This document shows, piece by piece, positions 4,172-63,846 of a stretch of DNA of 64,000 nt (its first letter is position 1; every line of letters starts with the position of its first letter). The DNA comes from a virus. The notes beneath the pieces are model-generated. The model made no database searches. It had not been told where the DNA came from and saw only the letters and a list, made by a program, of their open reading frames with translations. The stretch lies in the IMG/VR virus record IMGVR_UViG_3300044712_001062, positions 32,001 to 96,000 of that record. One strand, written 5' to 3'. The translations under genes and the position numbers were made by a program.

Positions 4172-4307
4172 TACCTTTATATATCCAATTAATAGTATTT
4201 AAAGTTTACCATCCAATTTATATATAGTAAATGAATTTGACACTTTTATTTAAAGATTGTGCAATGTAATGACCTTAAACACTACATTTTTATACAAGTT
4301 GTTACAT

Positions 4308-4382
4308 ATTTGTATGTGCCACAAGGTAACAAGACTACTAAAGCAAGGAGTGGGATCCTTTCTTTATTTGTTTTGTTTAGAG
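4308..4382 (+). ncRNA. Dispersed hairpin-RNA element, copy A
   Basis: TTTATACA 4289-4296, 11 nt, ATTTGTATGTGCC. Hairpin AACAAGAC/GUUUUGUU + UAAAG/CUUUA + AAGGA/UCCUU. Ends GTTTTGTTTAGAG. Confidence 0.7.
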
Positions 4383-4517
4383 TATGTGGTAATCGACTTG
4401 TTTTCCCGAAATTAACCATGTAGATTACATTCTCCATATGGGCGTGGGGTTTTCCAAGTTTCAAAAAAGTTTGTATATGGGCTTTGAGTTCTCCACATGG
4501 GCATTATATTTTAGATA

Positions 4518-4826
4518 TTATATTTTTCTTTTTTGGCTTTTGATATTTTTTTGTTTGCGAAGATCGATCATTGTGACATTTGTTGGCGTGGTGAAAGTTT
4601 TGAAACCCCTGCTACACACCGTATGGAAGTAGTTTCGGCTAACCTTGACACTGGGAAACTGCTCAACAAACGCATGGTATATGGCATATTCGACAACTTC
4701 ATCTATATCATATTCAATGCCGAAGTCCCGGACAAAGTCCCTTATGCGTTCGCTCTTGAAGCCTGGGCCATTATCCTCGATGGCCAATGAAGCGAGAAAT
4801 TTGTAAAATTCATCAAGGCGCTCCAA
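4518..4826 (-). CDS. Hypothetical protein
   Basis: 102-aa ORF with GAGGTG RBS upstream of a TTG start. Confidence 0.65.
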   Translation of the reverse strand: MERLDEFYKFLASLAIEDNGPGFKSERIRDFVRDFGIEYDIDEVVEYAIYHAFVEQFPSVKVSRNYFHTVCSRGFKTFTTPTNVTMIDLRKQKNIKSQKRKI

Positions 4827-4958
4827 AATTATACACCTCGAAATATAAAAATTGAACCTATATTAATCATCTATAGGAAAGTGCTCATTACCTATATATA
4901 AATGTTTGGTAACAATGTTACACGATTATTTACAATTTGTGAGTAAAAAATGAAAAAT

Positions 4959-5378
4959 TTAAATGGTCAATCTGATCATTTCACTCATGCCGAATTTTGT
5001 GTCGTGGTGATATGAGCAAACTTTAGCATTGAATGAGATTTTATCCCCAGGTTTGATATCATTAAGCATTAAATATGAAAGTTGATTGACATTTTGAATG
5101 TAGGTGTGATTAGTCACATATTCACCATCGATCATCAAGTCGCCCACCAGTGCATATTTTGAATTGTTACGGTAATGGACACAACCCTTTTTAATGAATC
5201 GCCCAGTGCAATTTACCCAACCCTTATCAAGGAATTTCTTGAGGTATTCACGGCGCTTAAACGAATCATTAGTCACACTTTCATGAGATCCACAGACACA
5301 CCCGTTAATTTGAAATTCATCCTCGATGGTAGTTTTTCCACATTTTACACATTTGACAATTGGTATGCCTTTAATCAT
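4959..5378 (-). CDS. Hypothetical protein, N-terminal Zn ribbon, possible C-terminal OB fold
   Basis: CVKC...CVCG; TTAAATAG box about 22 nt upstream (leaderless). Confidence 0.65.
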   Translation of the reverse strand: MIKGIPIVKCVKCGKTTIEDEFQINGCVCGSHESVTNDSFKRREYLKKFLDKGWVNCTGRFIKKGCVHYRNNSKYALVGDLMIDGEYVTNHTYIQNVNQLSYLMLNDIKPGDKISFNAKVCSYHHDTKFGMSEMIRLTI

Positions 5379-5460
5379 GAATGAAATGTTAGCAGCAAAA
5401 CTATTTAAGTTTAACTATTTGTATGCGGCAAAAGTTTCCTAACAAAAGATCCCAGAAATA

Positions 5461-5524
5461 CTCTAAACAAAACGAAAGAAAAGAAATTTCTTCTTTCTGT
5501 CTTGTTCGTGGGGTACATACAAAT
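5461..5524 (-). ncRNA. Dispersed hairpin-RNA element, copy B
   Basis: Minus strand: TTTATATA (5543-5536), 11 nt, ATTTGTATGTACCC. Hairpin GAACAAGAC/GUUUUGUUU + GAAAGAAGA/UUUUCUUUC. Ends GTTTTGTTTAGAG. Confidence 0.7.
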
Positions 5525-5973
5525 ATATCTTAACTTATATAAAAACCTTGTGACACGAAACAGTTTTGTGAGGTGAACGGATATAACAGGCTACATTTCC
5601 ATATTCTACTTTTCGTTTATACCAAATGTCGTATTCGTCTACAAATTTCATTAGATCGCCTGGACAAACTTTAATCCATTTAGGATCTGTTGGTAGTTGA
5701 TCAGAGATAATAATACTTTTATTACTTTCGATTTTTTCAAAGCGAGTTTTGAGATGCTTTAATTTTCCATACTTCAAATTATGAGTAATAATGTTCATTT
5801 AGGTTCTCCAAGTTATCAATGTTCAGGCAGTAATTTATATTCAATTTTATTGGTTATATCCCTCATTATCATTTCATAGGATATGCCAAATGTTCGTGAT
5901 AGTCCATAGATGTAGGCTGATGCATTTTCAATCTCATCATTATAAGTTTCGGACTTTAACATTGGTGATTACC

Positions 5974-6447
5974 TCATACAAGTATGTTTGAATGATTTCT
6001 ACCAAGATGCCTATCATATTTAACTGGTTCATCGCAGTAAAACATGTCAAGTTCAGAATATTCTGAAAATGTCGTGGTTGTCGATCTACAAGGTTCTTTG
6101 ACATTTTCCAATTTCATTCGCTCGCGATTACTTTTTGCGATTTTTCCATGGCCATTACAAGTTAGGTAATTTTTATCATACCATACTTTAATTTCACTAC
6201 CCAATTTATATTGGTATTGATGAATGCGAGACCAATTACCAGTGGCAAGTTTTACGTGCTTAACTTCATCGCTAACTTTTATTAGCAAGCCTTTGGCAAG
6301 TAACTTACGGTGTAATGATATAGTATATTCACTGTCTAATGTTTCCAAATCGTTGAATGAAAAGGAATTGTTTAGGTATTTTTGGCAAATTTTAGATAAA
6401 ACTTCACTATATATCCAAAATGTATTGCCATGGGGGCGTCCTGCCAT
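5974..6447 (-). CDS. Hypothetical protein (possible winged helix)
   Basis: 157-aa ORF preceded by the ACTTGGAGAAC RBS motif. Confidence 0.65.
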   Translation of the reverse strand: MAGRPHGNTFWIYSEVLSKICQKYLNNSFSFNDLETLDSEYTISLHRKLLAKGLLIKVSDEVKHVKLATGNWSRIHQYQYKLGSEIKVWYDKNYLTCNGHGKIAKSNRERMKLENVKEPCRSTTTTFSEYSELDMFYCDEPVKYDRHLGRNHSNILV

Positions 6448-9400
6448 TTTAGTTCTCCAAGTTGTAATTTTTTGTCATAAATAAAATAGAGGTGTAATGG
6501 TTATATACTTTTCGATTTTATATAACATTAAGGAGGAATTTAAGGCATAAATTGGCTTCATTATTATCTTTACATTTAAATGATAGGAAATTTGAATCAT
6601 CAATTCTATCAGCGCGGATATAAATATGATCTTCGCGGGTTGATAAGGCCAAGATGTCTGAACGTCTAATTACAATGGTTGTTGGGACTGGTGTATTGGT
6701 AATGTCGAATGTTAACCATTTATCATTAGTTTCGATATTTGCAAATGAAAATTCCATAATTGGTTCTCCAAGTTATAAAGTTGTACATGTATTGATAAAA
6801 ATACAATGTGTATACATGGTAATGAATGGTTACTATGCATTCACGTAGTAATTATGTTCACGGGTTCATTATACTTTTTAAATTTCTTGTTCATCAAATC
6901 TTTCAACATCTTCTTTGTGAAGATAGTATGAAGTATTGATGAATTTTTTAAATGTTTCAAAGTAATCTGGATGAAATGTGATGACTTTAGTAGTATCTGA
7001 ATGTTCTGGGGATTCTTTTACAGTTATTTCAATCATATCTTCATATGTCTGAATTTCAAATTTAAGAGTGCAACCGTAATCAGCATAAATATTATAGTTC
7101 ATAGGGTTCTCCAAGTTATAAAATATAGTTCTTAAAGTATAAAAATCTAATCATTCTATGTAGTTTAATACATGAGATTGTTGCCAGGCTTGAAGATCAA
7201 GGGATTTGCCATTTAAATTGTATAGCGGTTTGAAATTATCGCAGCGGAAAACCTGCAGGATGAATTTTCTATATATAAAATTTTGATCACAATTCTGGCA
7301 TATTTTACAGCATTCAATGGGATATTTAAACATTTAATTTTCCTTTTTTGATTTTTTTAATTGTTTAATGAGGGGTTTTCGCTTTGGCTTATCCATAACA
7401 TACTTGCACCATGTGTGATCGTTTAATTGTTCAATTAGATGCTCACATCCTTCACAATCGTTAATTCGTTGATTTAGTGATCGCATTGGGCAATAAAGGA
7501 TGTGATTGTGGTAAATTTTATTTTCCAACATAGAGTTTATCCAAGTTGATAGTTATTTTGGTTCATAACAATCGGATTCTTCAAGGTTCATATTCGCGTA
7601 TGATTGATTTGTAGATTGTGGGTGTGTCATGTAATTGCGGTAACATGTGGCAAATTTAGGGCAATATACGTTTGTGCATAATGTTAGATCCATAATGGTT
7701 CTCCAAGTTATAGATATATATATGTTTGTTTAATAATTATATTTTTGCTCCATGTTTTGTAATCCACGACGTTCACCAAATGCATCTTTTGGATTTCCTG
7801 ATATAGCATCTGGTAATGTGCAATCTATGTATTTTATATTTGCATTTGGAAATTCTTCTTGCAATGATTCCATTTTGTCAAGTGCCAATCTCCTTCCACC
7901 ACTTATCATTTTTGGATATTTACGAAATTCCATGATTATATTACCATCATAATTATAGAATTTAAAATTTGATATGTAATACCAAGAATATTGTTCATCA
8001 GCGTCATAACTTATAGTTATTTCGTGGCCAATATCTTCGATTCCATTAAAGGAGTCTACAGTATCTCTTATATTTTCACAAACGTCTGACATAGTCGAAT
8101 TTGATAAATTTCGTAGTATGGTTGATAATGATTTTATCATGATAATGATTCTCCAAATTACATTTTTTAAATTTAATAATTTTCACTACTTGTTGTTCTC
8201 ATAAATTCTAATTGACCATCGTTGTTTACGTGTAGATTGGTTTTATGGCATTTACACTGCAGCCAATGATGGTAGAGTAACATTACTTTTAGTTGATCGC
8301 TATTAATCATGTAAGTGGTTTGACATATGGGGCATTTAACTGAAATGACATTTGATGCAAGAATTGGTGTGATTACTGGAATATCATCATACATTTTATA
8401 TTCACCAATCATCATAATGGTGTGTAAATTTCAATGTAAAACTATCTGAATATGTTTTACCTTTCATTTCTTCGATTATCTGTTCACATGCACAAATAAT
8501 AATTTGCTTATGTGCTGTTGAAATATCAATGTTTTCCATAATATATACCATTATAATATATTCACGCCATATCCATAGCCTAATAAGAATGATAATATAC
8601 ATGCCATGATTACCAGGGTAATTGTAAATACTGTCCAATATGGTGAATCATGATCACCAAATGATGTGTGTGATAATTTCGTTATTGGTCCGGGCGTCAC
8701 TTTTTCAGAATTTGCTACAACAGTTTTATAAAATCCTGCAGCATGAACTCTTTTCATTACATTCTCTGGTAAATGTGGATTAGCGTTTTTAATACGATCT
8801 TCCCATTCATCATTTGATATTACACCATATTGTGGACTTGCACAACTAACTGGTGTATTATGTCTATTTGGATCGTCGTTAATCATACTTCCTCAATTAC
8901 TTCTTTTATGTTGATAATTTTCATGATGAATATGCATTGATTTGTTTTTCTAATAATACAATACCACATTGGAATGAACATACTTCATAATCACATGATT
9001 CGATATGACAACAATGAAGGGGTGAATTATCTCTAATTGTAATGGAATTATGCGTGCATTCTTTCTTACAATTATCACATAGAATTTGTCTCATTATAGT
9101 AATTTATAGGGTTTAAAAATATATTAAGGTTTGTAATTGATAATGGCCTTTGTTAATTTTTTGAATCCTGGTGTATCTGAAGTATATGTTATATTCATAT
9201 GTGATTTATTTTTCATCCATGAATCTGAACCTGTAATGCAATCTACAAGTTCAATGAGTTCACCAATAGACATTTGAATAGTAATTTGATTATCAGTCAT
9301 TTTTATAAATTTCCTCGCAATACATTAGAAAGGCATTTGCCAATCCTTCTTCAATGGTATCTGCTTTCATTACAAATTGATGGTATGTTTCTTGAATTTC

Positions 9401-29981: not shown

Positions 29982-29982
29982 A

Positions 29983-34957: not shown

Positions 34958-34979
34958 AATACATAGTATGCGGTCTATG

Positions 34980-35834: not shown

Positions 35835-35855
35835 ATGTCTTTACTGTTTATAAAA

Positions 35856-45593: not shown

Positions 45594-46167
45594 GTTTTCA
45601 AATTTGAGATGTTCAAATGGCTATGCTGAATGTTATTTTTAGGGAGTGAGCCTAAATAATAATTTGGTATTTTTAAATTTAGAAAAGTGAAGTGATCATA
45701 TAGGTGAGTTGATCATATAGGTGATGATCTTATTCGGGATTTAAGATCAGGTGGATTGGGGTCCATTGCGAGTGATGAAAGGTTTAAGGTTTTCAGTATG
45801 GCTTACTGGATGGTGTTTTTACATGGGCATCAGCCATCAGCACAAATTAAGGATTGAACCTTGGAATTTATGAAAATAAGTAAGGGGGTTACTTATTTTT
45901 GACAAAGAAAACGGGACGCATTTGTAGTTTTTAATGAGGATATCAGCCTCCAAAATGTAAGTAGGGATTGAGCCTACGTTACATCGAACACTATGAATTA
46001 GTAATAGGTTTGGTGAGGTGATTGTTTGGTGGTCAATGATAGTTTGTATATTAAGACTTCAGGAGTTATAGTTCATCAATGAGGATCGGTTCACTGATCG
46101 ACTATTAGTTTTTATTCAGGGTTTCGCCTGGACAATTAGAAGTGGAGTGAACCACTATCTAATTACC
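45594..46167 (-). ncRNA. Array of four structured units: T-loop-like long hairpin + short hairpin + UAAAAAC
   Basis: Units at 46106-46167, 45925-45985, 45815-45872 and 45594-45662. Loops GG-UUCACU-CC, GG-CUCAAUC-CC, GG-UUCAAU-CC, GG-CUCACUC-CC. Stems differ in sequence but keep pairing. No long ORF. Confidence 0.6.
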
Positions 46168-46207
46168 ATACACGTAGACATTTCATTTCTATTTTTTTTG
46201 TTTGTCG

Positions 46208-46277
46208 ACATTTGGCATCAGAAAATGAATAGGATAAACATTTTTAGTAATTAATCATTTCATCATTTGCCTAATGT
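46208..46277 (-). ncRNA. Box C/D-like (K-turn) small RNA directly 3' of tRNA-Leu
   Basis: ACAUU-A-GGCA-A-AUGAUGA ... CUGA-UGCC-A-AAUGU: perfect box C and box D in canonical K-turn register with a terminal stem. Confidence 0.65.
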
Positions 46278-46281
46278 TTAA

Positions 46282-46364
46282 TGGGTAATAGCCGATTTGC
46301 ACGGCTGAACTCCTATGAGGCGACATCTTGAGTGTCGTGGGTTTGACTGCTTCCCTAATTACCC
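46282..46364 (-). tRNA. tRNA-Leu(CAA), variant D/T loops
   Basis: GGGTAAT/ATTACCC acceptor stem; GGG/CCC D stem; CGACA-CT-CAA-GA-TGTCG anticodon arm; long variable arm CTC-ATAG-GAG; AGCCG-TGCAAAT-CGGCT T arm; discriminator A; no encoded CCA. Confidence 0.85.
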
Positions 46365-46754
46365 AAAATTTGAGCATTTGGTTGGTTGATGTTCGATACC
46401 TCACACTTTGGAAACAGGTTAGTGTTTCATTGGCCTCTCATCACATGACCAATCCGGGTGAGTATCGGATTTGAAATGATCATGCACATGTGGAGATTGG
46501 TGAACTGACTTCCATTTGTATATGGTTGTTAGTTCCCTGTTATGTATATTGTATGTCAGAGGTTATATACATTTTGGTTGGTAGTTTGAATCTGGGAAAG
46601 TTTGTTTCTTTGATTCGTTGCTACGATACTAATGTTGGTTTGATTAGTATTTATAGTTATGGGATTTATAATTTGTTAAAATTGAGAAGGGTTATCAGTT
46701 TTGAGAAGAGTAAAGGATCTGAAAATGGTGTGATCGCTAATTAGGTTCTCCAAG

Positions 46755-46925
46755 TGCACCCATAGACAGAATCAGAGTGTGAACTTCCAGCCCCTTCTGT
46801 TTAGAGCAGTTTGGATGGGTATGTGCGCAGGATGATCGTGTTAGGGAATTGTGTTTAGAGGATAGGGATGCTCACGTAAACAGTGAGGGTGTGGTAAGAC
46901 ACATCTTCATCTGTCTATGGGTGCA
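46755..46925 (-). ncRNA. ~170-nt closed ncRNA with a perfect 16-bp terminal inverted repeat
   Basis: TGCACCCATAGACAGA (46755-46770) and its exact reverse complement (46910-46925). Minus-strand TTTAAATA (46954-46947) plus 22 nt puts the TSS at the G of GCACCC. Confidence 0.7.
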
Positions 46926-46949
46926 AAATAATGTAGGTATTGACTGTAT

Positions 46950-47402
46950 TTAAATGTTTGTCTGGTTAGAATTTTTGTAGTTAAGGATCTCTGAATCGCA
47001 AAGTTGATCGCAAATTGAGGTATAGTGATTTTCTCTTGGATTCCATGTGAGGGTTATGTGGGTGTTGGTGAATAGGGCTTGGCCAAGGATGGTGATTGTA
47101 TTGTGGAGTTTTTTTAAGGTTGGATTGTTGATTTTGTAAGAGCCGTTTAGTTGGTTGATTAGTAATTGTGAATCGCTTATGAGGTGGATATCAGTTTCAT
47201 TGGTGATTAGGTGTTTGTTATGCATGAGGTAGGTTAGTGCTTCGATCATGGCTGTGTACTCAGCGATGTTGTTAGTGGTGTTAATGCCTACTATGCCGGA
47301 TGATTGGTGAGCAAGGCGATCATCTATGAGGATTACATAGGCGAATGCTGCGATTCCTGGATTGGGTTGTGCCCCTCCATCTGTGTAGATTTTAAGTGTC
47401 AT
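46950..47402 (-). CDS. rnhA: Ribonuclease HI
   Basis: IYTDGGAQPNPG, TNNIAEY, SDSQLLINQLNGSYKI, PRENxxxxxCDQL: D-E-D-D catalytic set. Confidence 0.92.
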   Translation of the reverse strand: MTLKIYTDGGAQPNPGIAAFAYVILIDDRLAHQSSGIVGINTTNNIAEYTAMIEALTYLMHNKHLITNETDIHLISDSQLLINQLNGSYKINNPTLKKLHNTITILGQALFTNTHITLTWNPRENHYTSICDQLCDSEILNYKNSNQTNI

Positions 47403-47412
47403 GATAGATCCT

Positions 47413-47802
47413 TTATGGTCTTCTCAATTTGTGGTTAATGATATATAGTTCTCGTCTACGATCACATATCATGTGAATTGAGAATATTGTTTTCCCATTG
47501 ACTATTATTTCGATTGGCCTATATAAACTGATGATGTAGCAAAGTCTTTTTTCTTTTGATTTGAGAGGTTTTTTGTCCATGAAATATGCTGTTATTATTT
47601 CGGTGAGGTATTGTTCCATTTGAGGATCATCAACTATTATTGAGTAGGTATAATTATGGTGATAGAGATGTTGTTTATTTGCTACGTGATATATTGCGTA
47701 TTTTAGGGGGTTTCCCATGAACTCTTTTGTGATGGATTTTTTAATGTTGTTGATTGTGACGTGAGTGATTGGTGGTTTGGTCGATATGGAGATTAATACC
47801 AT
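47413..47802 (-). CDS. Hypothetical protein
   Basis: 129-aa ORF with a TATA-like sequence upstream; co-oriented with rnhA. Confidence 0.55.
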   Translation of the reverse strand: MVLISISTKPPITHVTINNIKKSITKEFMGNPLKYAIYHVANKQHLYHHNYTYSIIVDDPQMEQYLTEIITAYFMDKKPLKSKEKRLCYIISLYRPIEIIVNGKTIFSIHMICDRRRELYIINHKLRRP

Positions 47803-47865
47803 AGGATCTATTAGTTGGGATGATATTTATATTTTGTGATTTATATATGGGCAATGAGAATAGTG

Positions 47866-47930
47866 TGGTGATCAAATTTGTGGTGATGGACGATCTTGTG
47901 GTGATGGACGGGTTTTGGTAATGGGCGATC
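47866..47930 (+). repeat. Short tandem repeats (TTGTGGTGATGGACG-like, ~18-bp period)
   Basis: tttgtggtgatggacgatc / ttgtggtgatggacgggt / tttggtaatgggcgatc. Confidence 0.6.
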
Positions 47931-48376
47931 TATTGAATATGATGTATAGGATAAAGGTTGATAGTGGTGTGGTTGATTTAGATTATTTGAATAAGATTGG
48001 GAGGTGTGATGAGTATTTTAGGTTGAAGGCTTTTGAATGGTGGATGAATGATAAGATGGGGGGTTTTGATAAAGTGGTTTTTGATAATGGTGGGATGTTT
48101 GTATTGAAGAATGAGAGAATGGTTGGCAGTGAATGGGGGATAGATGATCAAATTGAGGGTGATGAGTTTTATAAATGGGGGATTGATGAATTTTGTAAGG
48201 CGATGTTTGTTTTTGGCGATTGGTGGAGGTGGGAGAGATTTCCTGGAGATTTGTATTTTGTAAAGGGGTGTGTTATTAGGGATATGATTGATGAATTGTG
48301 GAAAGGTGGTGAGGATTGGCTGGCATGTGCATTGGTGAAAAGTTTGGATAGGGGTGAAGGTATTGTTTATACTTAG
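47915..48376 (+). CDS. Hypothetical protein (acidic, Trp/Gly-rich)
   Basis: 153-aa open frame; composition shaped by the local G/T skew. Confidence 0.5.
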   Translation: MVMGDLLNMMYRIKVDSGVVDLDYLNKIGRCDEYFRLKAFEWWMNDKMGGFDKVVFDNGGMFVLKNERMVGSEWGIDDQIEGDEFYKWGIDEFCKAMFVFGDWWRWERFPGDLYFVKGCVIRDMIDELWKGGEDWLACALVKSLDRGEGIVYT

Positions 48377-48490
48377 GGATTTTAATGGGGGTTAAAAATG
48401 AAGATTAATTACTAATCAATTATTGGGGTTTAAAAATGAGAAAGGTTTACTAATTGATTATTGATAGAGGATCTGAAAATAATGTGATGA

Positions 48491-49219
48491 TCAAATTTCA
48501 TCGAATTTTAATTTACGTGTTTTGATTTTTTCATATACGAGGCGGCGATCTTTCATGGTAGTTGGCTTTCCACAGTCAAGTCTTACATTGAAACGGGGAA
48601 CATTCATGTGCATGTGTTTGTATAGTGCGAGATTGAGATCGTGGTGTTTGCGTTCATCTTCGTTTACGATGTGAGCAATACCAGTAATTTTCTTTTTATT
48701 GTGGTTATTTGGATCATGTTGGAATTCGTGCTGATTTGTTTCACAATCTATTGAGCAGAATGAGCAGTCATATGGATTGGTTGTTTTGAAGGCACGTCCA
48801 CACCACTCACAGTAGTACCAGATGGAACGATACCCACGATTATTATCAGCGCAATGTCGGCTGCAATAGATTTTCCGACCTTCTTCAATGTGAATTGAGT
48901 AGGCTTGAAAATCAGAGAAACATGCTGCACATCGTTTGGTCAGGAGTCCATCAGGTTTGATTTTGTTTTTATTGGATGGTTTAAACCGATTGGAATTTCC
49001 ACAATGCTTACAATATTGCTGATCTTTTTTATTGGTGAATTTAATTCGACCACATCTATCGCAGATTAAGACGAAACCGGATTTTGAGCCACGCCCGCAT
49101 GGGGGTCGTTGATCTTCTACGATTTGCTTGTGTGCTGCGAATTTGGGATTGCGGAAGTTGTTTCGGTAGTCTTTTTCGGTTGCGAGTTTTATGAATTCAT
49201 CAAATGGAATGGTTGACAT
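48491..49219 (-). CDS. Multi-Zn-finger protein (CxxC...YCSxxC repeats)
   Basis: CDRCG, CKHCG, CAAC...YCSRHC, CEWCG...FCSIDC; ACTTGGAGAAAC RBS. Confidence 0.75.
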   Translation of the reverse strand: MSTIPFDEFIKLATEKDYRNNFRNPKFAAHKQIVEDQRPPCGRGSKSGFVLICDRCGRIKFTNKKDQQYCKHCGNSNRFKPSNKNKIKPDGLLTKRCAACFSDFQAYSIHIEEGRKIYCSRHCADNNRGYRSIWYYCEWCGRAFKTTNPYDCSFCSIDCETNQHEFQHDPNNHNKKKITGIAHIVNEDERKHHDLNLALYKHMHMNVPRFNVRLDCGKPTTMKDRRLVYEKIKTRKLKFDEI

Positions 49220-50208
49220 TGGGTTTCTCCAAGTAATAGTTCTCCAAGTGGATATTATTGATCAATAAGTGAATTGATTGGTAATATATTGGTGGTTATT
49301 ATATTTAATAGTAGTGAGGGTGATATTTGATTAGTTGGAAAATTTAGAAGCAGTATATTTTTTTGATTGGTAAAATTGAGAAGAATAATAGTTTTGTTGG
49401 GTGTATAAGTGATTGCTTATAGTCTTTTGGTGGTGTGATCTGCAGTGGAAATCGTGCTTGGTGAGTGGAAGATTGGAGGGGTGATTGGATTGGAGGGTAG
49501 ATTGGGGTTGGATTTTTCAGGAGTTACAAAGGGTTTATATACTGGTAGAGACAATACTACTCACCTCTGGGATGGATGAATAAAGTAGTGTGTGTGATAT
49601 TGAGGTTAGAAATGGAATGGGGGCTGATGCTTCCCCCTTTTCCGTTTTTAAGTGCTACATATATATATGACCCCCCAAAAAAAAGGTGGGGGGTTTACCC
49701 AGGGACCATTGAACTATAACATAACCACAATTTAAATTCCAAGTAAGATTCTTTTTTATTTTAGTGCCAATTTTGTTTTCATATAGTATCTGCGTTTTGG
49801 GTAACAAATCGCAAAAGTGATTTTCAAAAAGGAGAAAGCACATGCTCCAGTTTTAAGATCTGGATTTTTATCTATCCCAAACTGACTTTCGGATCGATTT
49901 TTTTAGATATAATTCTCGCGCCTGCCAGCGATAACGATTTAATAAAAGATTATAAAATATTTATTGATCCCAGTTTGCTTCTCTTACTTCCCCCCGATTA
50001 TTGGCAAAATGGGCTTGAATCTGGAATTCGACAGTATACAATGCTTGGATAATTTTATCGAGCAAGAATTATACGGTTTGCTTTGTTTACAAATCAGAGA
50101 ATAGAACTTGCTTTGTTTAAAAAATCCAAGAAAGGTTTATATGTGGGCAATAAATGTGGAGGCTTAACAAAAATTGAGGAAAGTGGTGTGAAAAATATAA
50201 AATTTGAT

Positions 50209-50424
50209 CTATAAAATTTTCCACTTGGATCTAATTTTGTCAGACTTGAGGTAGGCTTTGGTGAGGAGATCTTCAGCACGCCTGATATCTGCATCAATGC
50301 CACTGAGTTCCATGAGTAAGGTGGTGGAGGCTTCTCGATAGCCACTTCTGGCCATTTCATTAGCGTGGTTTGTGCATAATTTTTTGATTTGGTTGATTTC
50401 CTGGAGGGTGCTTTCCATCGACAT
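50209..50424 (-). CDS. Small coiled-coil hypothetical protein
   Basis: 71-aa ORF with a TTTAAAA box upstream. Confidence 0.55.
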   Translation of the reverse strand: MSMESTLQEINQIKKLCTNHANEMARSGYREASTTLLMELSGIDADIRRAEDLLTKAYLKSDKIRSKWKIL

Positions 50425-50545
50425 ACATATTACATGGGCGTATTAGGTTTTAAAGGTTGTTATTGGGGTGTCTTGGATTGAGAAAATATGACATTTTGAT
50501 AGATGGGCTTAAATATATGGATAGATTTTTATAGTTTGGTGTTTT

Positions 50546-50620
50546 ATTTGTATGTGCCAAACGGGACAGATGACAAGGAAAGAGGAGAATCATTTCCTTT
50601 TTCCTGTTGTTTGTTTCAAG
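50546..50620 (+). ncRNA. Dispersed hairpin-RNA element, copy E
   Basis: TTTTATAG 50527-50534, 11 nt, ATTTGTATGTGCC. Hairpin GGGACAGAUGACA/UGUUGUUUGUUUC (13 bp, 5 G-U) + GGAAAGAGGAGA/UUUCCUUUUUCC. Confidence 0.72.
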
Positions 50621-50861
50621 GTGGTTTTCGAAATTTTATAATACCCGAGATATCGGTTATTAAATGCATGTTGTTAACTTTTCTATTTTGTTCAATGTGT
50701 CCGGAGCCATCGGACATTGGATATAATACCCCCGAATGGTGTTGTTAAATTATATTAATTGATTATTATAATTTGTTCATCGGTCAGTGTAACACGGACC
50801 AGCCTAAACTTATAAAGATTTTGGTGCGCAAATGTTTCTGGCTAAAAGAGTTCAAAGACTG

Positions 50862-50924
50862 CTCTAAACAAAACAAAGAAGGAAGGTTTTCCCTTTTCGT
50901 TTTGCTCGTTAGGCACATACAAAT
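50862..50924 (-). ncRNA. Dispersed hairpin-RNA element, copy F
   Basis: Minus strand: TATATAAA (50944-50937), 12 nt, ATTTGTATGTGCCT, purine-rich arm, pyrimidine-rich arm, then GTTTTGTTTAGAG. Confidence 0.72.
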
Positions 50925-51059
50925 AAGTATTGACTGTTTATATACTTATTGATGGCACACACATTCGAACGCTATTGAGGTTGTTGGTTGGTGGTATGGT
51001 TGATCGTTTTATGGATTATAATGGCATGGTGTGATGATGTGAGATGATGATAGGCATTT

Positions 51060-51193
51060 TTTCGCGGTAACTATAGAGGTTTTTTGTATTGTCTTTTTTT
51101 AGAAAAAATACCTGGAAAAGTTTAGGTAAAAATTTCGCGGTAACTGGGAAGACTTTTTTCTTTGTTTTTTTAAATTAAAAATACCTGGAAAAG
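51060..51193 (+). repeat. Two imperfect 73-bp tandem repeats
   Basis: TTTCGCGGTAACT at 51060 and 51133; ATACCTGGAAAAG at 51108 and 51181 (both 73 apart). Confidence 0.8.
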
Positions 51194-51843
51194 CAAAGTT
51201 AAAAAATTTTAGTAAAGTTAAAAGATGTTGAATTGTGTGGTCACTTATATCCTGGGATTAATATATTAAAATTTGAATAAAAGTAAGGTGGTTTGATAGG
51301 TAGTATTATAGTAGGTTGTGGTGTTGTTTGGTATTTAAAGGAAGATAGATCGATAGGTTTATATATTTTTAGATCTAATTTTATTATGTCAAAGGTGAAG
51401 TGAATGTATAAATCAAAAATGTATAAAACCAAAGTGGCTTTGTTGTTTGGACTGAATACTGTATTATTGTATACAATTGTATTTGTATCATGGTTTAAGG
51501 TGTTCTGATGTTGTTACAAGGTGAATACCCCCATTTGGTTGAAGGACTTATAAATCAGTACAAATGTTTAAACTGTGGACATTATTTACAACTTGTTTCA
51601 CTTGGTTATAATTATCCAGATATGATAATATGCGATCAGAAAGAATGTTCATATATGAAGGTGCTATAAAATGGAAAAAATCGAATGTAGTTTAATTACT
51701 GCTATGGAGATCATGAATGAGAATTATGCTTTGTATACTTTAGAACGAGATATGACTAATTATACCTGGTATCATAATGGTGTTGGATTAGGATCTTACA
51801 ATGAGTATACAAAGGAATTTGTGTATAGGGAGGTTTGATTATT

Positions 51844-52272
51844 ATGGATAAATCAGAATTAATTAAAAAGATACTTGATAACATGGAATATATGGAAGAG
51901 ATTCGTGGAGGTATCTGGAAATGCAAAGATGAGACTTATCAGGATCTATACTTTGAGGCTCATCAAGATATGCTTCCTGATGATTGGAGATATAAGATGA
52001 TACATGATAGTTTGATCGCGCTCGGGGAAGTCGAAGAAGGCTATGATGTCATGGAAGCATTAGACAGCCATATACCAATTTATACTCATGAACTCATGGC
52101 ATGGATGGGATCAAGGAATGATAGATATAGTTATGTTGATCAGGCAATTGAAGATTTTGGTAAGGCTGACAGCATCATTAATGATATCATGGCGGGATAT
52201 CTGAAGGAATTGGAAGAGGTTTATTATTCAGTTGATCAGTGGATAGATGAACATGTTGATGAGGATTTATAA
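51844..52272 (+). CDS. Ocr (T7 gp0.3)-like acidic DNA-mimic / anti-restriction protein
   Basis: Very acidic helical protein. EALDSHIPIYTHELMAWM aligns by eye with Ocr AADNAVPHYYADIFSVM. GGAGGT RBS. Confidence 0.6.
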   Translation: MDKSELIKKILDNMEYMEEIRGGIWKCKDETYQDLYFEAHQDMLPDDWRYKMIHDSLIALGEVEEGYDVMEALDSHIPIYTHELMAWMGSRNDRYSYVDQAIEDFGKADSIINDIMAGYLKELEEVYYSVDQWIDEHVDEDL

Positions 52273-52754
52273 TGGTAGTGAATATGGAAGACTCAAATCC
52301 TATTGCATTGGCTAATGAGATGCATATTGTATATGATAGACTCAAGGATCATGAAGATTCTTTATGGCCTTTGGAAGATGGGGGACATTACCATAAGGTA
52401 TTTTTTGGGCAGATATGGATTAGTGATATTTGGAATGATGTTGAAGAAGCGCTTGAATCGTATGGTCTTTGGATAGAGACAGGGGAAGATGATGGCGCTG
52501 ATGTTTACGTATGTGGGAATGACACATTACATTTTTGTAAAAATTGCAAGTGGATGGATAAAGGAGAGTATGAATTAAGATTAGAGGTTTGTAGATGTTA
52601 TAAACCTCAAAATATTATCCAAAGAGGAAATATCTTAAAATTTGATCATTGCGATAAGGGATCATTGGCTTGCTATTATTATGTAGAAAGGACTGATGAT
52701 AATGCGAATGACTATAAGGATACATTAGAATTTAAAGCAGGATGTTATCTATGA
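52272..52754 (+). CDS. Hypothetical protein, acidic N-terminus plus Cys-rich C-terminus
   Basis: TAATG overlap with the Ocr-like gene; FCKNCKW...C...C. Confidence 0.7.
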   Translation: MVVNMEDSNPIALANEMHIVYDRLKDHEDSLWPLEDGGHYHKVFFGQIWISDIWNDVEEALESYGLWIETGEDDGADVYVCGNDTLHFCKNCKWMDKGEYELRLEVCRCYKPQNIIQRGNILKFDHCDKGSLACYYYVERTDDNANDYKDTLEFKAGCYL

Positions 52755-52966
52755 GTGATGATTTGAAATTTTTAGCGGATGAGATCAATAGGAAAAATGC
52801 TCTATTGCGATATTATCGTTCAAGGGTTGATCCTCATAGTCATATGGCTGCAATTGCCATAAGTGGTGAGTTAGAAGGATTGAGAAGGCAAAGGGATCAA
52901 GTTAAGGCAGATGTAAGGCTGGATAGGTTGATCAGTAGATATCCAAATGTTAGGAGGTTACTTTAA
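52742..52966 (+). CDS. Small hypothetical protein
   Basis: ATGA overlap; followed by a T-rich terminator. Confidence 0.6.
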   Translation: MLSMSDDLKFLADEINRKNALLRYYRSRVDPHSHMAAIAISGELEGLRRQRDQVKADVRLDRLISRYPNVRRLL

Positions 52967-52976
52967 TTTTTTTTTA
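52962..52976 (+). terminator. Archaeal oligo-T terminator
   Basis: TTTAATTTTTTTTTT immediately after the stop codon of a + strand operon. Confidence 0.5.
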
Positions 52977-52980
52977 ATGG

Positions 52981-53262
52981 CCAGTGATATTTTTGTGATA
53001 TTTTTGTGATATTTTTTTTTCGATTTTTTCAAGTGTTACGAATGTGAGATTTTTCACATCACAATTTTTCCAGTGATGTTGGTGTTACGAATGTCCAGGT
53101 TAGTGTTATCACAATTTGTTCAGTGATATCACAAAATAGTGTTATGGATTTGATGATTGGTGTTACTGTGATGTGGGTTTGTATGTGGTGATGTTAGATC
53201 GGCGGGTTAATAGTGGGGGGATTGACGAATGGTTGGTGATGTGGGGTTAGTGATATCACTGG
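52981..53262. repeat. Cluster of GTGATA/GTGTTA/GTGATG and inverted ATCAC motifs (iteron-like)
   Basis: GTGATATTTTT x3 in tandem, GTGTTACGAATGT x2, palindromes GTGATATCAC x2; non-coding. Confidence 0.7.
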
Positions 53263-53340
53263 GAATAAAAAACGGGGCGGTAGCGGTGGGTAATACATGA
53301 AAGCTGGTGTATATAAATCAATCCCAATATTTTCCAATTT

Positions 53341-53518
53341 TATCAACCGAAAATTTAATCAACCAAAAAAACATATTAAAAATTACACCCATAAAATTTC
53401 AAAATTACATCCACACCTCCATTAAATTTTATCAAACGAAAAATCTACCCAACCCCCTCCTATTTTTATCAAACGAAAAAATTAACTTTGATACCATCAT
53501 TCATTCTATCAAACGAAA
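53341..53518 (+). repeat. Four TATCAA(A/C)CGAAA direct repeats (iteron-like)
   Basis: Copies start at 53341, 53430, 53467 and 53507. Confidence 0.8.
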
Positions 53519-53550
53519 CTTTCAAATAATGTAAACAACCACCACCCCTT

Positions 53551-53793
53551 ATGTCTAAAAAACGCACTTGCACTTGTGAATTTTGCTCCACCACCTTCCC
53601 AACCTACCTCAACGAACTTCTCCGTGGTCGTGCACAAACTTGCTCCAAACAATGTGCAGGAAAATTCAAGCATAAGAGCGCCACGAGCAAAATATGCCCC
53701 ATATGTTCAACAAAGTTTTCAACTTACTCCAATAGAACTCATTGTTGCAACGAATGCCAAGATATATCAAAGGCACTCCTTTCACAACCTTAA
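53551..53793 (+). CDS. Zn-finger protein
   Basis: CEFC...TCSKQC...CPIC...CCNEC. Confidence 0.65.
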   Translation: MSKKRTCTCEFCSTTFPTYLNELLRGRAQTCSKQCAGKFKHKSATSKICPICSTKFSTYSNRTHCCNECQDISKALLSQP

Positions 53794-53807
53794 AATAACG
53801 TCAATAA

Positions 53808-54083
53808 GTGATCACTATTATGGAACCAATTACCATAATCGGCTATATCCTATCAGCTCTTATAGTCGGAATACCCCTAGTCTACACCTATTCGAAAAAA
53901 CTTGGTCTTGCCCTATCATTCATCTATGAATTCCTAAACATCATCTCATCATACATGAATGGCGATCTCGATCACGAATTCACAGATTCTGAAAAACTCG
54001 CTCTTGCAGATTCAGTAATTGCTCTCGGCAAGCGAATCGACGAAAATCTAGACATCGACGCCATATTAAATTTTAAAAAATAA
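53808..54083 (+). CDS. Small membrane protein (holin-like, uncertain)
   Basis: N-terminal hydrophobic helices and a charged C-terminus. Confidence 0.55.
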   Translation: MITIMEPITIIGYILSALIVGIPLVYTYSKKLGLALSFIYEFLNIISSYMNGDLDHEFTDSEKLALADSVIALGKRIDENLDIDAILNFKK

Positions 54084-55877: not shown

Positions 55878-56088
55878 AATCACCCACCCCTATTTTATTC
55901 CCTGCAAAAAATATGCGCTAATGGTTCTCCAAGTCATTATATACAACCTGAACACCCCCAACCTACCAAACATTTAAATACTTTAACTACCAACATACTA
56001 AATGCAAGGGATGTTGTTAACTGATCCACTAACAAACCCTTAAAATTCGATCATTAATTAATCAATGATCACCAAGGAGCAAATTCAA

Positions 56089-56313
56089 ATGTCAAACGAA
56101 GTATCTTACCCAATCGCAACTACCGAATCAATCATTAAGAAGAATGCAGGCGTTCACCGCATTTCACATGGCGCTGGAGTAAAACTCGCAAGTCTCGCAG
56201 CATCACATATCATCGATCTCGCAACCAAGGCCAACACCGTGGCAACTCACGCTGGACGCACTACGATCCGCGAAGAAGATATCGATGTAGTTCTCGGCCT
56301 CTCCTCAAATTAA
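56089..56313 (+). CDS. Archaeal HMf-type histone
   Basis: YPIATTESIIKKNAGVHRIS...A...ATHAGRTTIREEDI matches the histone-fold consensus LPxAxxxRI..xxxRVS...HAGRKTIKxEDI. AAGGAG RBS before ATG 56089. Confidence 0.9.
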   Translation: MSNEVSYPIATTESIIKKNAGVHRISHGAGVKLASLAASHIIDLATKANTVATHAGRTTIREEDIDVVLGLSSN

Positions 56314-57936: not shown

Positions 57937-58007
57937 CGACTACTATTTGCGAACTTTTATAACTCACGCGCACATAAAACCCTGCTAAAAAAGACCCGGA
58001 AAAACTA

Positions 58008-58078
58008 CTCTAACAAAAACAAAGGAAAAGGAAATGATCTTCCTCTTCTTTTATTCTTGCGTTGGGGTACATACAAAT
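58008..58078 (-). ncRNA. Dispersed hairpin-RNA element, copy G
   Basis: Minus strand: TTTATAAA (58098-58091), 12 nt, ATTTGTATGTACCCC. Hairpin GCAAGAAUAAA/UUUGUUUUUGU + GAAGAGGAAG/UUUCCUUUUC. Ends GTTAGAG. Confidence 0.72.
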
Positions 58079-58149
58079 AAGAATAACCAATTTATAAAAC
58101 TATTGTTCCACGATAATTATTAATGTTATAATAACAAATATACTCGTAT

Positions 58150-58722
58150 ATGTTCATCAAACCAATTCAAACACGATATCAAGGTTATAATTTTCGAAGT
58201 AGGCTTGAAGCACGTTGGGCAGTATTTTTCGACGCTTTAAACATCAACTGGGAATATGAAAGTGAAGGATATGTATTGCCAAATGGCAAAAATTATCTCC
58301 CAGATTTTTATTTACCACAAGTAAACATGTATGTAGAAGTAAAGCCAAAGATTGGTTTTGATGAAATTGCTCTTTCTAAATGTAAAGAACTTGTAATGTC
58401 ATTAAAATGTGGAATATTGCTTGCCGAAGGAATGCCAGGATCTACCCCAGTTATAAATGGCTATGAATATGGCGAGCAACTATACGAAGATGATGGAACA
58501 TACATAAATCCAAACCCTGACGAATACATTGCGGCAAAATACCAATATCATCTATGGAATCCACATAATTACCATCAATGCGAAGGTAGATTTTATAACG
58601 ATCCTGGTTGGTATCCCAATTATGTATATTATATGGACGAAATTTACAAAAATATCATCAATGAAGCGGCGAACAAAGCAAAAAGTGCGAGATTTGAATT
58701 TGGTCAAAATGGCCCAACATAA
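58150..58722 (+). CDS. PD-(D/E)XK-family nuclease
   Basis: FRSRLEARWAVFFD...WEYE.EG...YLPDFYLP...EVKP. Confidence 0.85.
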   Translation: MFIKPIQTRYQGYNFRSRLEARWAVFFDALNINWEYESEGYVLPNGKNYLPDFYLPQVNMYVEVKPKIGFDEIALSKCKELVMSLKCGILLAEGMPGSTPVINGYEYGEQLYEDDGTYINPNPDEYIAAKYQYHLWNPHNYHQCEGRFYNDPGWYPNYVYYMDEIYKNIINEAANKAKSARFEFGQNGPT

Positions 58723-61743: not shown

Positions 61744-61881
61744 TTTTTATTCCCACTCCATTTATATAAGGACAATAACCTCATTTCATCACACGATCAT
61801 TGGATCGTCAAACTCCGAAGCAATTGAGGTGTGGAAATCCTCACACTATATTATCCAATTGTTTTGTCGGGATAGAAGCCA

Positions 61882-63561
61882 ATGGCTCTCCCAGAGTATA
61901 ATGAGGTTGAATTTATGTCTGAAACAAAATCGAAGCGTAGACAACGCTATAAATTTTCTGCAGCCTCCAATCGAACGCCAAACAAATTGCCAACGCAATC
62001 TTTTACTCGTCCGTGCGTATCGGGAGTCGCTGTTCATCAGGCAAATTCATCTAATTTCGTTAATTTTTTAAACGGCATATCGGACTTCGCGAATGAGCCA
62101 AAAGACGATCTTCTCGAACACATGTATACCATGGAACCCGAGATCGCAAGTGCAGTGGACAGTTTCGCACTTATGGTTCGCGAATCCTTTAAATACTTTG
62201 ATGTAATTAACGATACAGAATTAGATAATTTGCCAGACAAATTAGAAATTGACGATCAAACATTTGATTTCTCCAAGGCCAATAACAAATTACTTCGTGA
62301 AATGGTAGATGTCGCCAATAAACTTTCCAAGGAACTTGACATCAAAAATCTATACGAAATTTATGCATCAGTATTGTTCATGCATGGGAATCTATTCCTT
62401 AAAATCAACAAAAACTTATCATTAACAGTCCTTCCAAATGATCGCGTAACAGTATTAGACACCCTCAACCGCCTGCAGGATTCAGCAAGTGGTAATACAA
62501 TCGACGATCTCATGATGCAGGCTAATTTCCTCGTTGTTGATGAAAATTTAGACACCCAGAAAATCTACAACAAAGGCGAGTTCATCATCATCAGATTCCG
62601 CGACACCCCACTCTATGTTGAAGACTCTAAAGGCCGAGTAACCTACGGAATATACGGTGTTTCGCCACTTCGACGCACTATCATCCCAGTATGGTATAAG
62701 CGTATTATTATGGCCAATGACGCACTCTGGCGATACCGAAACGTCCCACGCCTGCACGTACAATTGGCAGCCGAATCATTCAATTCGTTGAACTTCCAGG
62801 GAAATCCAGAACTTCGCCGCCAAAAAGCCGAAGGTGCAGCAACATCCGCATTATCACAGCAAGCCGCTGTAATGGAAGAACAAGGCCCCGATCAAGCATT
62901 CATCACATTGGACACCACTAAAATTTCCACGGTGGACGCTAATTCCGGCGGATATATGCAAGCAAATGAACTTCTAAACCAAGTTAATGAATCTATATTT
63001 TCAGCCGTTAATATGCCCGTCTCGATCATCAAGGGAGTTTCATCATCCAATTATGCAAGTGAACTTGTGATATACGCACATGCAAGCATAAAAGTTGCCC
63101 AAATCGCTGATAAAATTTCCCGAGTAATCCTCAAGATCATGAAGGAAAGACTTCGTCTTATCAACCCATCATATCCAGTTGAATTCCTCGAATGCAATAT
63201 AAGCGCAGACATCAGTGCAAACCCACTTGACAACCTCAAAAAGGCTCAATTCAAATACGCAATGTCTGGATGCTACACAGAAACCGAAATACGACGAACT
63301 ACCGGTGATAAACCCCTTACCGAAGAACAAAAGAATTCCAGCGAACTCATCAAGAAGTTCGAAGCAGAAGTCAAAAATCTCAACACAAAACAAACAACAT
63401 TTGCTGATTACAACACACCTGGTGGAAATTCCAATGGGCAAACATCATACCCAACCACCTCTCATAGCGCTGACAAACAACCAACAGACACCGCACAAGC
63501 CGTCATCAACAAAGGGGCCAACAGCAAAATAAACGAAAAAACCGGAATGAAACCCATCTAA
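61882..63561 (+). CDS. Portal protein
   Basis: About 550 aa directly after TerL; YGVSPL motif, SNYAS, and TETEIR..G..PL C-terminal motif. Start may be 61915. Confidence 0.85.
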   Translation: MALPEYNEVEFMSETKSKRRQRYKFSAASNRTPNKLPTQSFTRPCVSGVAVHQANSSNFVNFLNGISDFANEPKDDLLEHMYTMEPEIASAVDSFALMVRESFKYFDVINDTELDNLPDKLEIDDQTFDFSKANNKLLREMVDVANKLSKELDIKNLYEIYASVLFMHGNLFLKINKNLSLTVLPNDRVTVLDTLNRLQDSASGNTIDDLMMQANFLVVDENLDTQKIYNKGEFIIIRFRDTPLYVEDSKGRVTYGIYGVSPLRRTIIPVWYKRIIMANDALWRYRNVPRLHVQLAAESFNSLNFQGNPELRRQKAEGAATSALSQQAAVMEEQGPDQAFITLDTTKISTVDANSGGYMQANELLNQVNESIFSAVNMPVSIIKGVSSSNYASELVIYAHASIKVAQIADKISRVILKIMKERLRLINPSYPVEFLECNISADISANPLDNLKKAQFKYAMSGCYTETEIRRTTGDKPLTEEQKNSSELIKKFEAEVKNLNTKQTTFADYNTPGGNSNGQTSYPTTSHSADKQPTDTAQAVINKGANSKINEKTGMKPI

Positions 63562-63653
63562 ATTTTTCATTTTTACGCGACAAATCTCAAGGCTCATATG
63601 GAGAACCAATTCCCTAACACCACAATTTTTGAAAGAACAAACGCCCCCAAATA

Positions 63654-63732
63654 CTCCTTAACAAAACGAAAAAGAAAGTCCGGATCTCATCCCGTCTTCC
63701 TGTTCATTTTGTTGCGTGAGGCACATACAAAT
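63654..63732 (-). ncRNA. Dispersed hairpin-RNA element, copy H
   Basis: Minus strand: TTTATATA (63753-63746), 13 nt, ATTTGTATGTGCCT. Hairpin AACAAAAUGAA/UUCGUUUUGUU + AGGAAG/CUUUCU + GGAU/AUCC. Ends GTTTTGTTAAGGAG. Confidence 0.72.
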
Positions 63733-63846
63733 ATACTCTTAACTATATATAAAACTATTGTATAATATACATTTTTAATACTTAAAATTATAAAACATTA
63801 TTATCACTACCTTTATATAAGGACAATTTTATAAATCTTTGCCAAG

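Follow-up and report, generated by a model that had tools for sequence, protein, structure and literature searches.

The stretch of viral DNA considered here raises the question of what a short unit, in which a TATA-like word, an invariant decamer and an RNA hairpin follow one another, is doing in one intergenic space after another. The window, that is, the whole stretch of 64,000 nucleotides that was analysed, corresponds to bases 32001-96000 of the 135,061-bp virus record IMGVR_UViG_3300044712_001062, and an earlier note drawn from its letters had proposed that it carries a family of eight dispersed hairpin RNA genes with their own promoters. The eight copies were confirmed where that note had placed them by exact matches to the decamer ATTTGTATGT, which occurs 8 times in the window against 0.78 expected, a count that none of 100 shuffles reached. 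The number eight holds for the window but not for the genome: in the whole record the decamer occurs 18 times, 16 times with the full architecture and twice within coding sequence without it, and one extra copy reads ACTTGTATGT in its place, which brings the genome total to 17 copies, all of them intergenic. That these are self-promoted short hairpin RNAs is well supported by the sequence, and the units are probably transcribed from their own promoters into the short hairpin RNAs that we predict. The earlier proposal of a multi-copy small RNA family with a promoter signature passed all the sequence-level tests, but it had missed the placement of the copies at borders and in pairs, which points at least as strongly to a role in cis, as punctuation of transcription units, as to an RNA acting in trans.

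The extent of the family was delimited with two covariance models, R1 built from 9 copies and R2 from 22. Alignments made with MAFFT left the hairpin arms out of register; the fold of one copy was supplied as the structure and the sequences were re-aligned to the model. Both R1 (E up to 1) and R2 recovered the same 17 copies in the record and no others. Searching the contig and related viruses in this way, a check that the earlier note had suggested, extended the family beyond this genome, as R2 retrieved 21 further copies in four related records (9 in G002, 5 in G001, 5 in G003 and 2 in L148). R2 found no copy in a set of 80 unrelated viral loci (723,510 nt), these being 80 of the 114 single chance matches, in viral contigs, of a loose first pattern scan, while a stricter pattern scan of metagenomes gave one true contig (L148, with a convergent pair) and two chance matches. 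Nearly all 38 copies of the five records share the core GTATGT(G/A)C and a UUGUU...AG.G end; conservation does not extend to the sequences of the loops and arms. Within each genome the promoter-proximal motif is uniform, and it is specific to the lineage, being ATTTGTATGT here, CCACCTGTATGT in G002 and AGGTATGT in G003.

Promoter, hairpin and stop signal

The order of parts is the same in all 17 copies of the genome: a TATA-like word, a spacer of 12-13 nt, the decamer, a G or A, a leader of 5-10 nt and a hairpin of 16-25 pairs. The 5' arm of the hairpin is purine-rich and the 3' arm rich in U and C, the stem base pairs (G)ACAA with UUGUU(U), and an AGAG-like tail follows. The architecture described in the earlier note was present in its eight copies, although the leader and hairpin sizes it gave (7-10 nt and about 20-25 pairs) were too narrow, and the GTTTTGTTTAGAG-like junction that it regarded as conserved is exact in three of the eight copies, within two mismatches in five, and looser in copies D, E and H.

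In 17/17 copies the TATA-like word ends 21-24 nt before the G/A (22-23 nt for the leading word), and this G/A is preceded by a T, so that every copy has a TATA element at a fixed distance from a pyrimidine-purine start, as in promoters of the archaeal TBP/TFB type. Of the 34 strict TATA octamers upstream of the 198 genes examined, 18 fall 20-24 nt ahead of the ATG, most often at 22 nt, which is the geometry of leaderless archaeal genes. The elements match this geometry, supporting the G/A as the predicted start, a position that the earlier note had derived from the leaderless genes and that agrees with the genome-wide peak. A closing helix between the 5' leader and the 3' tail was considered and dropped: the copies at genome positions 709, 36308 and 104483 paired well, but the mean score over all 17 copies, 10.4, was no better than the 9.7 of shuffled leaders.

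Concerning the 3' end, a run of T4 or longer lies inside the 3' arm of all 17 copies, and a further T4 run follows the hairpin within 12 nt in 8/17 (background 9.7%) and within 30 nt in 13/17 (background 21%). In Methanococcus maripaludis, U4 tracts are the terminator signal, a hairpin is not required, and two or more such tracts terminate most efficiently and bind aCPSF1 most strongly (PMC8716108). The family copies carry the sequence expected of an archaeal U-tract terminator, at least one and ideally at least two U4 tracts at the 3' end, and the position of these tracts in and after the 3' arm, read with the Methanococcus rule, predicts a product RNA of about 60-90 nt. The closely spaced U4 tracts, one in the 3' arm of every copy and in most copies another after it, resemble the aCPSF1-assisted terminators. 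In contrast to these, which require no hairpin and have no promoter attached, the first U-tracts of the family are base-paired in a conserved hairpin and a promoter lies 50-62 nt upstream (PMC8716108).

Because a purine arm and a U-rich arm will often pair well even by chance, the stability of the hairpins was compared with that of sequences in which each arm was shuffled within itself (500 shuffles per copy). The real folds of the 17 copies average -18.1 kcal/mol, against per-copy shuffle means of -7.4 to -15.2 kcal/mol (mean z -3.1), and between 0 and 29 of the 500 shuffles per copy were as stable as the real fold. The strand-specific G-U pairing pointed out in the earlier note was recovered throughout, with G-U pairs making up 59 of the 330 predicted pairs and the reverse complement (mean -10.1 kcal/mol) folding more weakly than the promoter-strand RNA in 17/17 copies, including the seven '+' copies that lie among leftward genes. 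As the promoter-strand fold is the stronger whatever the direction of the neighbouring genes, selection acts on the RNA read from the element's own strand.

The claim that pairing is kept while the arms diverge also stood up to a covariation check. When the 38 copies were aligned to the model, 83.6% of the cells were paired against 71.3% in shuffles, and 112 cells showed double changes against 38.8; registers slid by 1-3 columns gave 54-67% paired, and none of 500 shuffles reached the observed values. This alignment was fitted to the model structure and leans toward it, while the arm shuffles made copy by copy are independent of any alignment. On the evidence of these aligned copies, the hairpin is maintained by compensatory changes.

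Its assignment outside the known RNA families was borne out in Rfam release 15, where, over the whole window, a tRNA alone passes the gathering threshold; permissive scans of copies E and F and of the A-B region gave at most 22.7 bits against thresholds of 39-70. A box C/D small RNA was rejected, box C (RUGAUGA) being found in 0/17 copies, box D (CUGA) in 1/17 and both together in none. Likewise, the resemblance to a spliceosomal intron (GUAUGU ... polypyrimidine ... UAG) was set aside as a coincidence in view of the archaeal-type promoter, the tailed virus and the fixed distance between TATA and GUAUGU. RNA anti-CRISPRs, which are solitary repeat units, mimic the host CRISPR repeat in both sequence and structure. 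Such mimicry by the family copies is unlikely, since their arms vary, and the lack of conserved arms and of a conserved single-stranded seed also argues against guide RNAs. The inward-facing pairs described below argue against replication primers.

Operon borders, inward-facing pairs and related viruses

The copies occupy operon borders. Along the record their strands run + - + - + - + - + - + - - - + - -, each '+' copy being followed by a '-' copy 0.26-4.05 kb away, and this forms seven inward-facing pairs and leaves three single copies. Four of the pairs enclose leftward accessory operons, of which one comprises a phosphoesterase and two small genes, another NrdD, a glutaredoxin, an S-adenosylmethionine decarboxylase and a dCMP deaminase, and the remaining two encode proteins without a Pfam match; the other three pairs enclose 0.26-0.54 kb without a convincing gene. 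Seven of the 17 copies begin directly at the stop codon of a gene in the same direction or a few bases away from it, and 10/17 stand back-to-back with the start of an oppositely directed gene. Taking the related records together, all 12 couples of elements no more than 4.1 kb apart are convergent (7 here, 3 in G002, 1 in G001 and 1 in L148), and none is tandem or divergent. The copies that follow a gene of the same direction are the most canonical, with a short hairpin and an exact junction, and provide 6 of the 8 top R2 scores, while the hairpins of the inward-facing '+' copies tend to be longer and more diverged; the canonical and the longer-hairpin copies could represent two functional subclasses.

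The related records were reached through capsid homologues, namely the viral contigs G001 and G002 (63% and 42% identity, respectively) and the contigs of a metagenome-assembled genome (MAG), G003; L148 came from the metagenome pattern scan. The capsid protein alone retrieved no relative among viral contigs, an alignment of capsids retrieved two, and an alignment of a second structural protein retrieved the same two. Two further close relatives, of about 130 kb and with 84% identity in the capsid, are known through proteins P0003 and P0004. The pair lying between the genes of a 167-aa and a 2318-aa structural protein is found in four of the five records (here, G001, G002 and L148), G003 having one copy there. 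G002 also has the pair that encloses the phosphoesterase operon, with cargo proteins 40-47% identical, and an element in the site and orientation of copy H. Element sites have been kept between viruses with 42-63% capsid identity while the hairpin sequences turned over completely. Some turnover is seen as well: the pair before the 2318-aa gene holds an insert of about 0.65 kb with a gene in G002, against 120-135 nt here, in G001 and in L148, and G002 carries a pair where this genome has a single copy (genome position 124067).

The virus is tailed and encodes an archaeal histone-fold protein (PF00808, 82 aa, window 56065-56313, + strand, E 1.4e-8); an ERCC4 nuclease, a polymerase of family B and the anaerobic ribonucleotide reductase are further evidence that its host is an archaeon. 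The G003 capsid, 44% identical, belongs to a MAG titled Methanospirillum sp., and the capsid alignment, run against 301 sampled genomes of the order of this MAG, gave one match, the MAG itself. We tentatively take the host to be archaeal and probably methanogenic, an assignment that comes from one bin. A bacterial promoter with a Bacteroidota-type -7 box was also considered and dropped on the TATA-to-start calibration, the archaeal histone, the ERCC4 nuclease and the relative in the Methanospirillum MAG. The ends of the record overlap by 174 nt (genome 1-174 and 134888-135061) with one mismatch, which makes it probable that the genome is complete and either circular or circularly permuted.

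Several viral elements share parts of this design. In the lambda oop RNA and the lambda 6S late leader, a promoter followed by a terminator within about 60-200 nt yields a small RNA; both are single-copy and bacterial, with antisense or antitermination roles. Like oop, which is convergent with the 3' end of the neighbouring gene, 6/17 family copies are so placed, but the family differs from both lambda RNAs in its 17 copies of variable sequence, archaeal promoter and paired layout. The stoperators and start-associated sequences of mycobacteriophages, including extended forms with a hairpin, are invariant intergenic motifs of 10-14 bp in about 10-30 copies, specific to the lineage, which occur as bare protein sites or just before start codons and are thought to bind a phage regulator that blocks transcription. 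The family shares with them an invariant decamer, a dispersed intergenic distribution and lineage specificity, but joins a TATA promoter to a conserved RNA hairpin.

A likeness is also seen to the PeSLs (promoter-early stem-loops) of T4-type phages, composites of a sigma-70 promoter and a stem-loop that stops transcription arriving from upstream (PMC2839356, PMC4122927). In both cases a small promoter and stem-loop motif is present in many intergenic copies in a large tailed virus, flanks accessory genes and has a stem-loop with a terminator role. The PeSLs differ in three respects. The promoter of the family is of the archaeal TATA type, and the order TATA, start, hairpin in 17/17 copies makes the hairpin part of its own transcript. 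PeSLs are direct repeats flanking ORFans, which recombine to give indels and mini-circles, whereas the family copies are inverted in 12/12 couples. The stems of PeSLs are built of G/C tracts, whereas those of the family have a purine arm and a U-rich arm with many G-U pairs. Literature searches, which left supplementary files aside, turned up no paper in the collection searched that describes a family of this kind from viruses of archaea. None of these viral elements, nor the archaeal U-tract terminators, unites a promoter of archaeal type with a conserved hairpin that is transcribed, U4 tracts and copies arranged in convergent pairs.

Proposed roles: boundary module or RNA product

For the function of the units, we lean tentatively toward a role in cis, as promoter-terminator modules marking the boundaries between operons. 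Each copy would be an independent and very short archaeal transcription unit, in which TBP/TFB would bind the consensus TATA box, ATTTGTATGT would occupy positions -10 to -1 and the polymerase would start at the G/A; ATTTGTATGT would probably double as the site of a lineage-specific regulator. The purine-rich arm would be transcribed first, followed by the U/C-rich arm folding back onto it, and transcription would stop at the two or more U4 tracts in and just past the 3' arm, releasing a folded RNA of about 60-90 nt. With a strong promoter complex and a multi-U-tract terminator, the unit would end sense transcription and oppose head-on the transcription arriving from the other side, leaving the neighbouring operons under their own promoters, and the hairpin would keep the U-rich product folded and stable. 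We infer the transcription, the 3' end and the insulating effect of the units from their sequence. This role best explains the placement at borders, the inward-facing pairs around operons, the multiple U4 tracts and the freedom of the arm sequences.

Several observations weigh against it. Five of the six genes that run head-on into an element carry their own T5-T6 run before reaching it, and do not need the element as their terminator. A terminator needs no promoter of its own, and one of the two copies in the empty pair that precedes the 2318-aa gene meets no incoming transcription. Copies D and H lack a U4 run after the hairpin within 260 nt and 119 nt, respectively, and the starts, 3' ends and abundance of the RNAs are predictions; the covariation figures also carry the lean noted above. 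Finally, the hairpin is under clear selection although archaeal termination needs none, which points to a role of the RNA product itself (PMC8716108). The T runs of the head-on genes, the hairpin-free termination of archaea, the presence of a promoter and the idle member of the empty pair all favour such a product.

Indeed, a possible alternative, nearly as likely as the boundary role, is that the copies act in trans as structured decoy RNAs. The 17 loci would then make one kind of hairpin, recognised by a protein of the host or the virus through its shape, its stem base (AACAA/UUGUU) and its purine tail (AGAG), for example as a decoy for a factor binding U-tracts or double-stranded RNA, or as an anti-defence RNA, and operon borders would be sites where the genes do no harm. 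This reading accounts for the compensatory maintenance of a hairpin that archaeal terminators can do without (PMC8716108), as well as for the high copy number and the conservation of the stem base and 3' tail across the 38 copies, and a promoter-proximal motif that is invariant per genome and differs by lineage suggests coordinated regulation of the whole set. It leaves unexplained the 12/12 convergent couples and the conservation of sites in distant relatives, the loops and arms are not conserved, and no partner protein was recognised among 50 Pfam-scanned proteins and 10 more.

A second RNA of the window, not a family member, bears on the same reading. At 46755-46925 (- strand), a predicted RNA of about 171 nt follows a TATA-like word (46947-46954, 22 nt upstream) and folds with a long closing stem (-58.5 kcal/mol, z -6.8), and its open, C/A-rich loop of 60 nt bears CCUCUAAAC and GCGCACAUACCC, which are complementary to the two conserved ends of the family, GUUUAGAG and GUAUGUGC. 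Two of the four matches to the junction motif outside the elements in the window lie within this locus, 54 nt apart. The complementarity of its loop to both ends speaks for a role in trans, while the absence of a counterpart in the relatives, which are roughly 45% complete, speaks against it. Judging from its sequence, this RNA may pair with the family as an antisense RNA, or it may be what is left of old copies. Read on the + strand, the locus resembles tail-head-tail fragments of old elements. A specific form of the trans role, in which the hairpin RNAs from 17 promoters would titrate aCPSF1 or Sm-like U-binding proteins and loosen termination throughout the genome or on the long viral operons, with the 171-nt RNA as a timer or sponge, is distinctly improbable.

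That the repeats are recombination cassettes like PeSLs, serving as exchange sites for accessory genes with the empty pairs as vacant landing sites, is unlikely. The pairs do bracket accessory operons in four cases out of seven and are empty in the other three, and both the gene-bearing insert of about 0.65 kb before the 2318-aa gene of G002 and the pair found there in place of the single copy at 124067 are what such exchange might leave. However, the copies flanking a cargo are inverted rather than direct, and exchange between them would invert the cargo instead of excising or inserting it; identity between copies is limited to about 13-20 bp, and hairpins are no more alike within pairs (0.65) than between pairs (0.70). 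The phosphoesterase cargo and its pair, kept in G002 at 40-47% protein identity, indicate stability. In addition, a search for sequencing runs containing this DNA listed one DNA run, which may be the source of the record, and no RNA run; over window positions 34000-53999 the DNA run gave a single contig of 134,917 nt without joints and without variants at the elements, bearing in mind that contigs drop rare variants.

Regulated leaders, in which the hairpin and U-tracts would stop transcription unless a viral antiterminator acts, as at the lambda late promoter, appear rather improbable. The order promoter, hairpin, U-tract is that of a promoter-proximal terminator, and five of the 17 copies have a gene in the same direction 87-152 nt downstream. 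Nevertheless, the other 12 have no such gene and meet the 3' end of a gene or their partner element, transcripts reading through from the inward-facing copies would run antisense to the cargo, and each of the five downstream genes is preceded at the leaderless distance, 21-24 nt before its start, by a TATA-like word of its own (four were inspected directly, and for the fifth the sequence inspected ends about 2 nt short of the called start).

Very remote, and rejected on tests of duplication, synteny, cargo and frame length, are a mobile element similar to a transposon or a miniature inverted-repeat transposable element (MITE), with the promoter block as terminal inverted repeat, and a leaderless micro-ORF (open reading frame) read from the ATG in ATTTGTATGT: the pairs are indeed inverted repeats around 0.26-4 kb and the ATG is present in 17/17 copies, but a MITE, which the earlier note had named as an explanation to be looked for, would not account for outer flanks without target-site duplication beyond chance (longest shared words of 4-5 nt in six of seven pairs against a random mean of 4.6, the 8-nt word of the seventh being the TATA word), metabolic cargo with no transposase among its proteins, sites syntenic in relatives and arms unrelated within pairs, while the frames, of 4-143 codons over the 17 copies (3/17 with six codons or fewer), are no longer than the other two frames, share no peptide beyond MC/MY and read the conserved 3' motif in different frames.

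Copies in the window, neighbouring features and wider meaning

Of the copies in the window, A and B face each other. Copy A (4273-4388, + strand) has its TATA word ending 23 nt before the predicted start G at 4318, ATTTGTATGT at 4308-4317, a long-form hairpin and the junction GTTTTGTTTAGAG, and stands back-to-back with the start of the leftward gene 3791-4171 (R2 65.9 bits, E 2.6e-9; fold -16.1 against -11.8 kcal/mol for the reverse complement; arm-shuffle z -3.8). Copy B (5455-5559, - strand) is the top R2 match, with 92.7 bits (-16.2 against -9.5 kcal/mol, z -2.6). It comprises a TATA box at 5545-5538, ATTTGTATGT at 5524-5515, the predicted start A at 5514, an 18-bp hairpin and AGAG at 5464-5461, with a T4 run 17 nt past the hairpin; it adjoins the stop of the upstream gene 5535-5798 on the same strand, and the next gene (ATG at 5378) has its own TATA-like word 23 nt upstream.

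Copies C and D lie opposite each other with 0.54 kb between them, a space without a convincing gene. Copy C (35264-35379, + strand) forms a long-form hairpin of 20 pairs with an 11-nt loop, followed by the junction GTTTTGTTAAGGG and a T6 run 26 nt past the hairpin (71.6 bits; -20.1 against -14.1 kcal/mol, z -3.6). The junction of copy D (35759-35868, - strand), TTGTTGTTTGTTATGA, is the most diverged; the copy adjoins the stop of the upstream same-strand gene 35856-36251, and no T4 run follows within the 260 nt mentioned above (62.9 bits, E 9.9e-9; -16.2 against -13.3 kcal/mol, z -2.7). Similarly, copies E and F are opposite each other, with 0.38 kb and no gene between them. Copy E (50512-50627, + strand) has the longest hairpin, with 25 pairs of which 7 are G-U, the junction GTTTGTTTCAAGG and a T4 run 7 nt past the hairpin (68.7 bits; -28.3 against -11.8 kcal/mol, z -4.6, with 0/500 shuffles as stable), and copy F (50856-50958, - strand) is of the canonical short form with the exact GTTTTGTTTAGAG (84.8 bits; -16.8 against -10.0 kcal/mol, z -2.6).

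The last two copies are unpaired. Copy G (58002-58112, - strand), whose predicted RNA begins ACC and which has T5 and T6 runs past the hairpin, has the promoter of the rightward gene 58150-58722 at its back and lies upstream of four leftward genes, an operon with its own TATA-like word (75.6 bits; -19.8 against -10.9 kcal/mol, z -3.1). Copy H (63648-63767, - strand) lies between two rightward structural genes, encoding proteins of 559 and 374 aa, and opposes their direction (71.5 bits; -18.3 against -10.9 kcal/mol, z -3.0). Just downstream of copies A, C and H (4420-4500, 35420-35480 and 63590-63620), GTTCTCCA(N)3-4GG words occur once or twice; the opposite strand of these words holds the GGAGAA core of a ribosome-binding block, with no start codon after it.

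This block, ACTTGGAGAA, is found 28 times in the record (for example at window 5798-5812, 6447-6461 and 41488-41502, on the gene strand), with an ATG 4-8 nt later in 21 cases, and is an unusually long, near-invariant ribosome-binding block of the genes that are not leaderless. A few of its copies have no start codon after them, as beside the 171-nt RNA. The latter lies in a region of about 1.4 kb on the - strand (~45560-46950) that has no convincing ORFs, contains a tRNA-Leu(CAA) at 46281-46365 and resembles an operon of non-coding RNAs. Elsewhere in the record, a small ORF (L001 13048-13479 in genome coordinates, - strand) matches just the last ~55 residues of the anaerobic ribonucleotide reductase, the NRDD C-terminal end; it lies upstream of the glutaredoxin gene and the full-length NrdD, and could encode a spare-part protein or reflect a split gene. 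The 1075-aa product of the gene at 30699-33926 (- strand) carries the Mtd_N domain (E 5e-8), the N-terminal one of the major tropism determinant (Mtd) of Bordetella phage. Diversity-generating retroelements usually act on Mtd. Among the proteins scanned, in which no search aimed at one was made, there was no reverse transcriptase.

The ways in which archaeal viruses partition their genomes into transcription units are poorly understood, as are the small RNAs that viruses of archaea encode. The family provides a compact and easily synthesised module, present 17 times, whose inward layout has been kept while the capsid diverged to 42% identity. It offers a test bed for the part played by hairpins in archaeal termination, for promoter complexes as insulators of operons and for abundant structured viral RNAs acting against their hosts, and methanogen genetics could use the module as a ready-made insulator part. 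If the action in trans were true, these RNAs would form a new class of viral RNA, and if they titrated aCPSF1 or Sm-like proteins, they would be the first case in archaea of transcription termination taken over by means of RNA.

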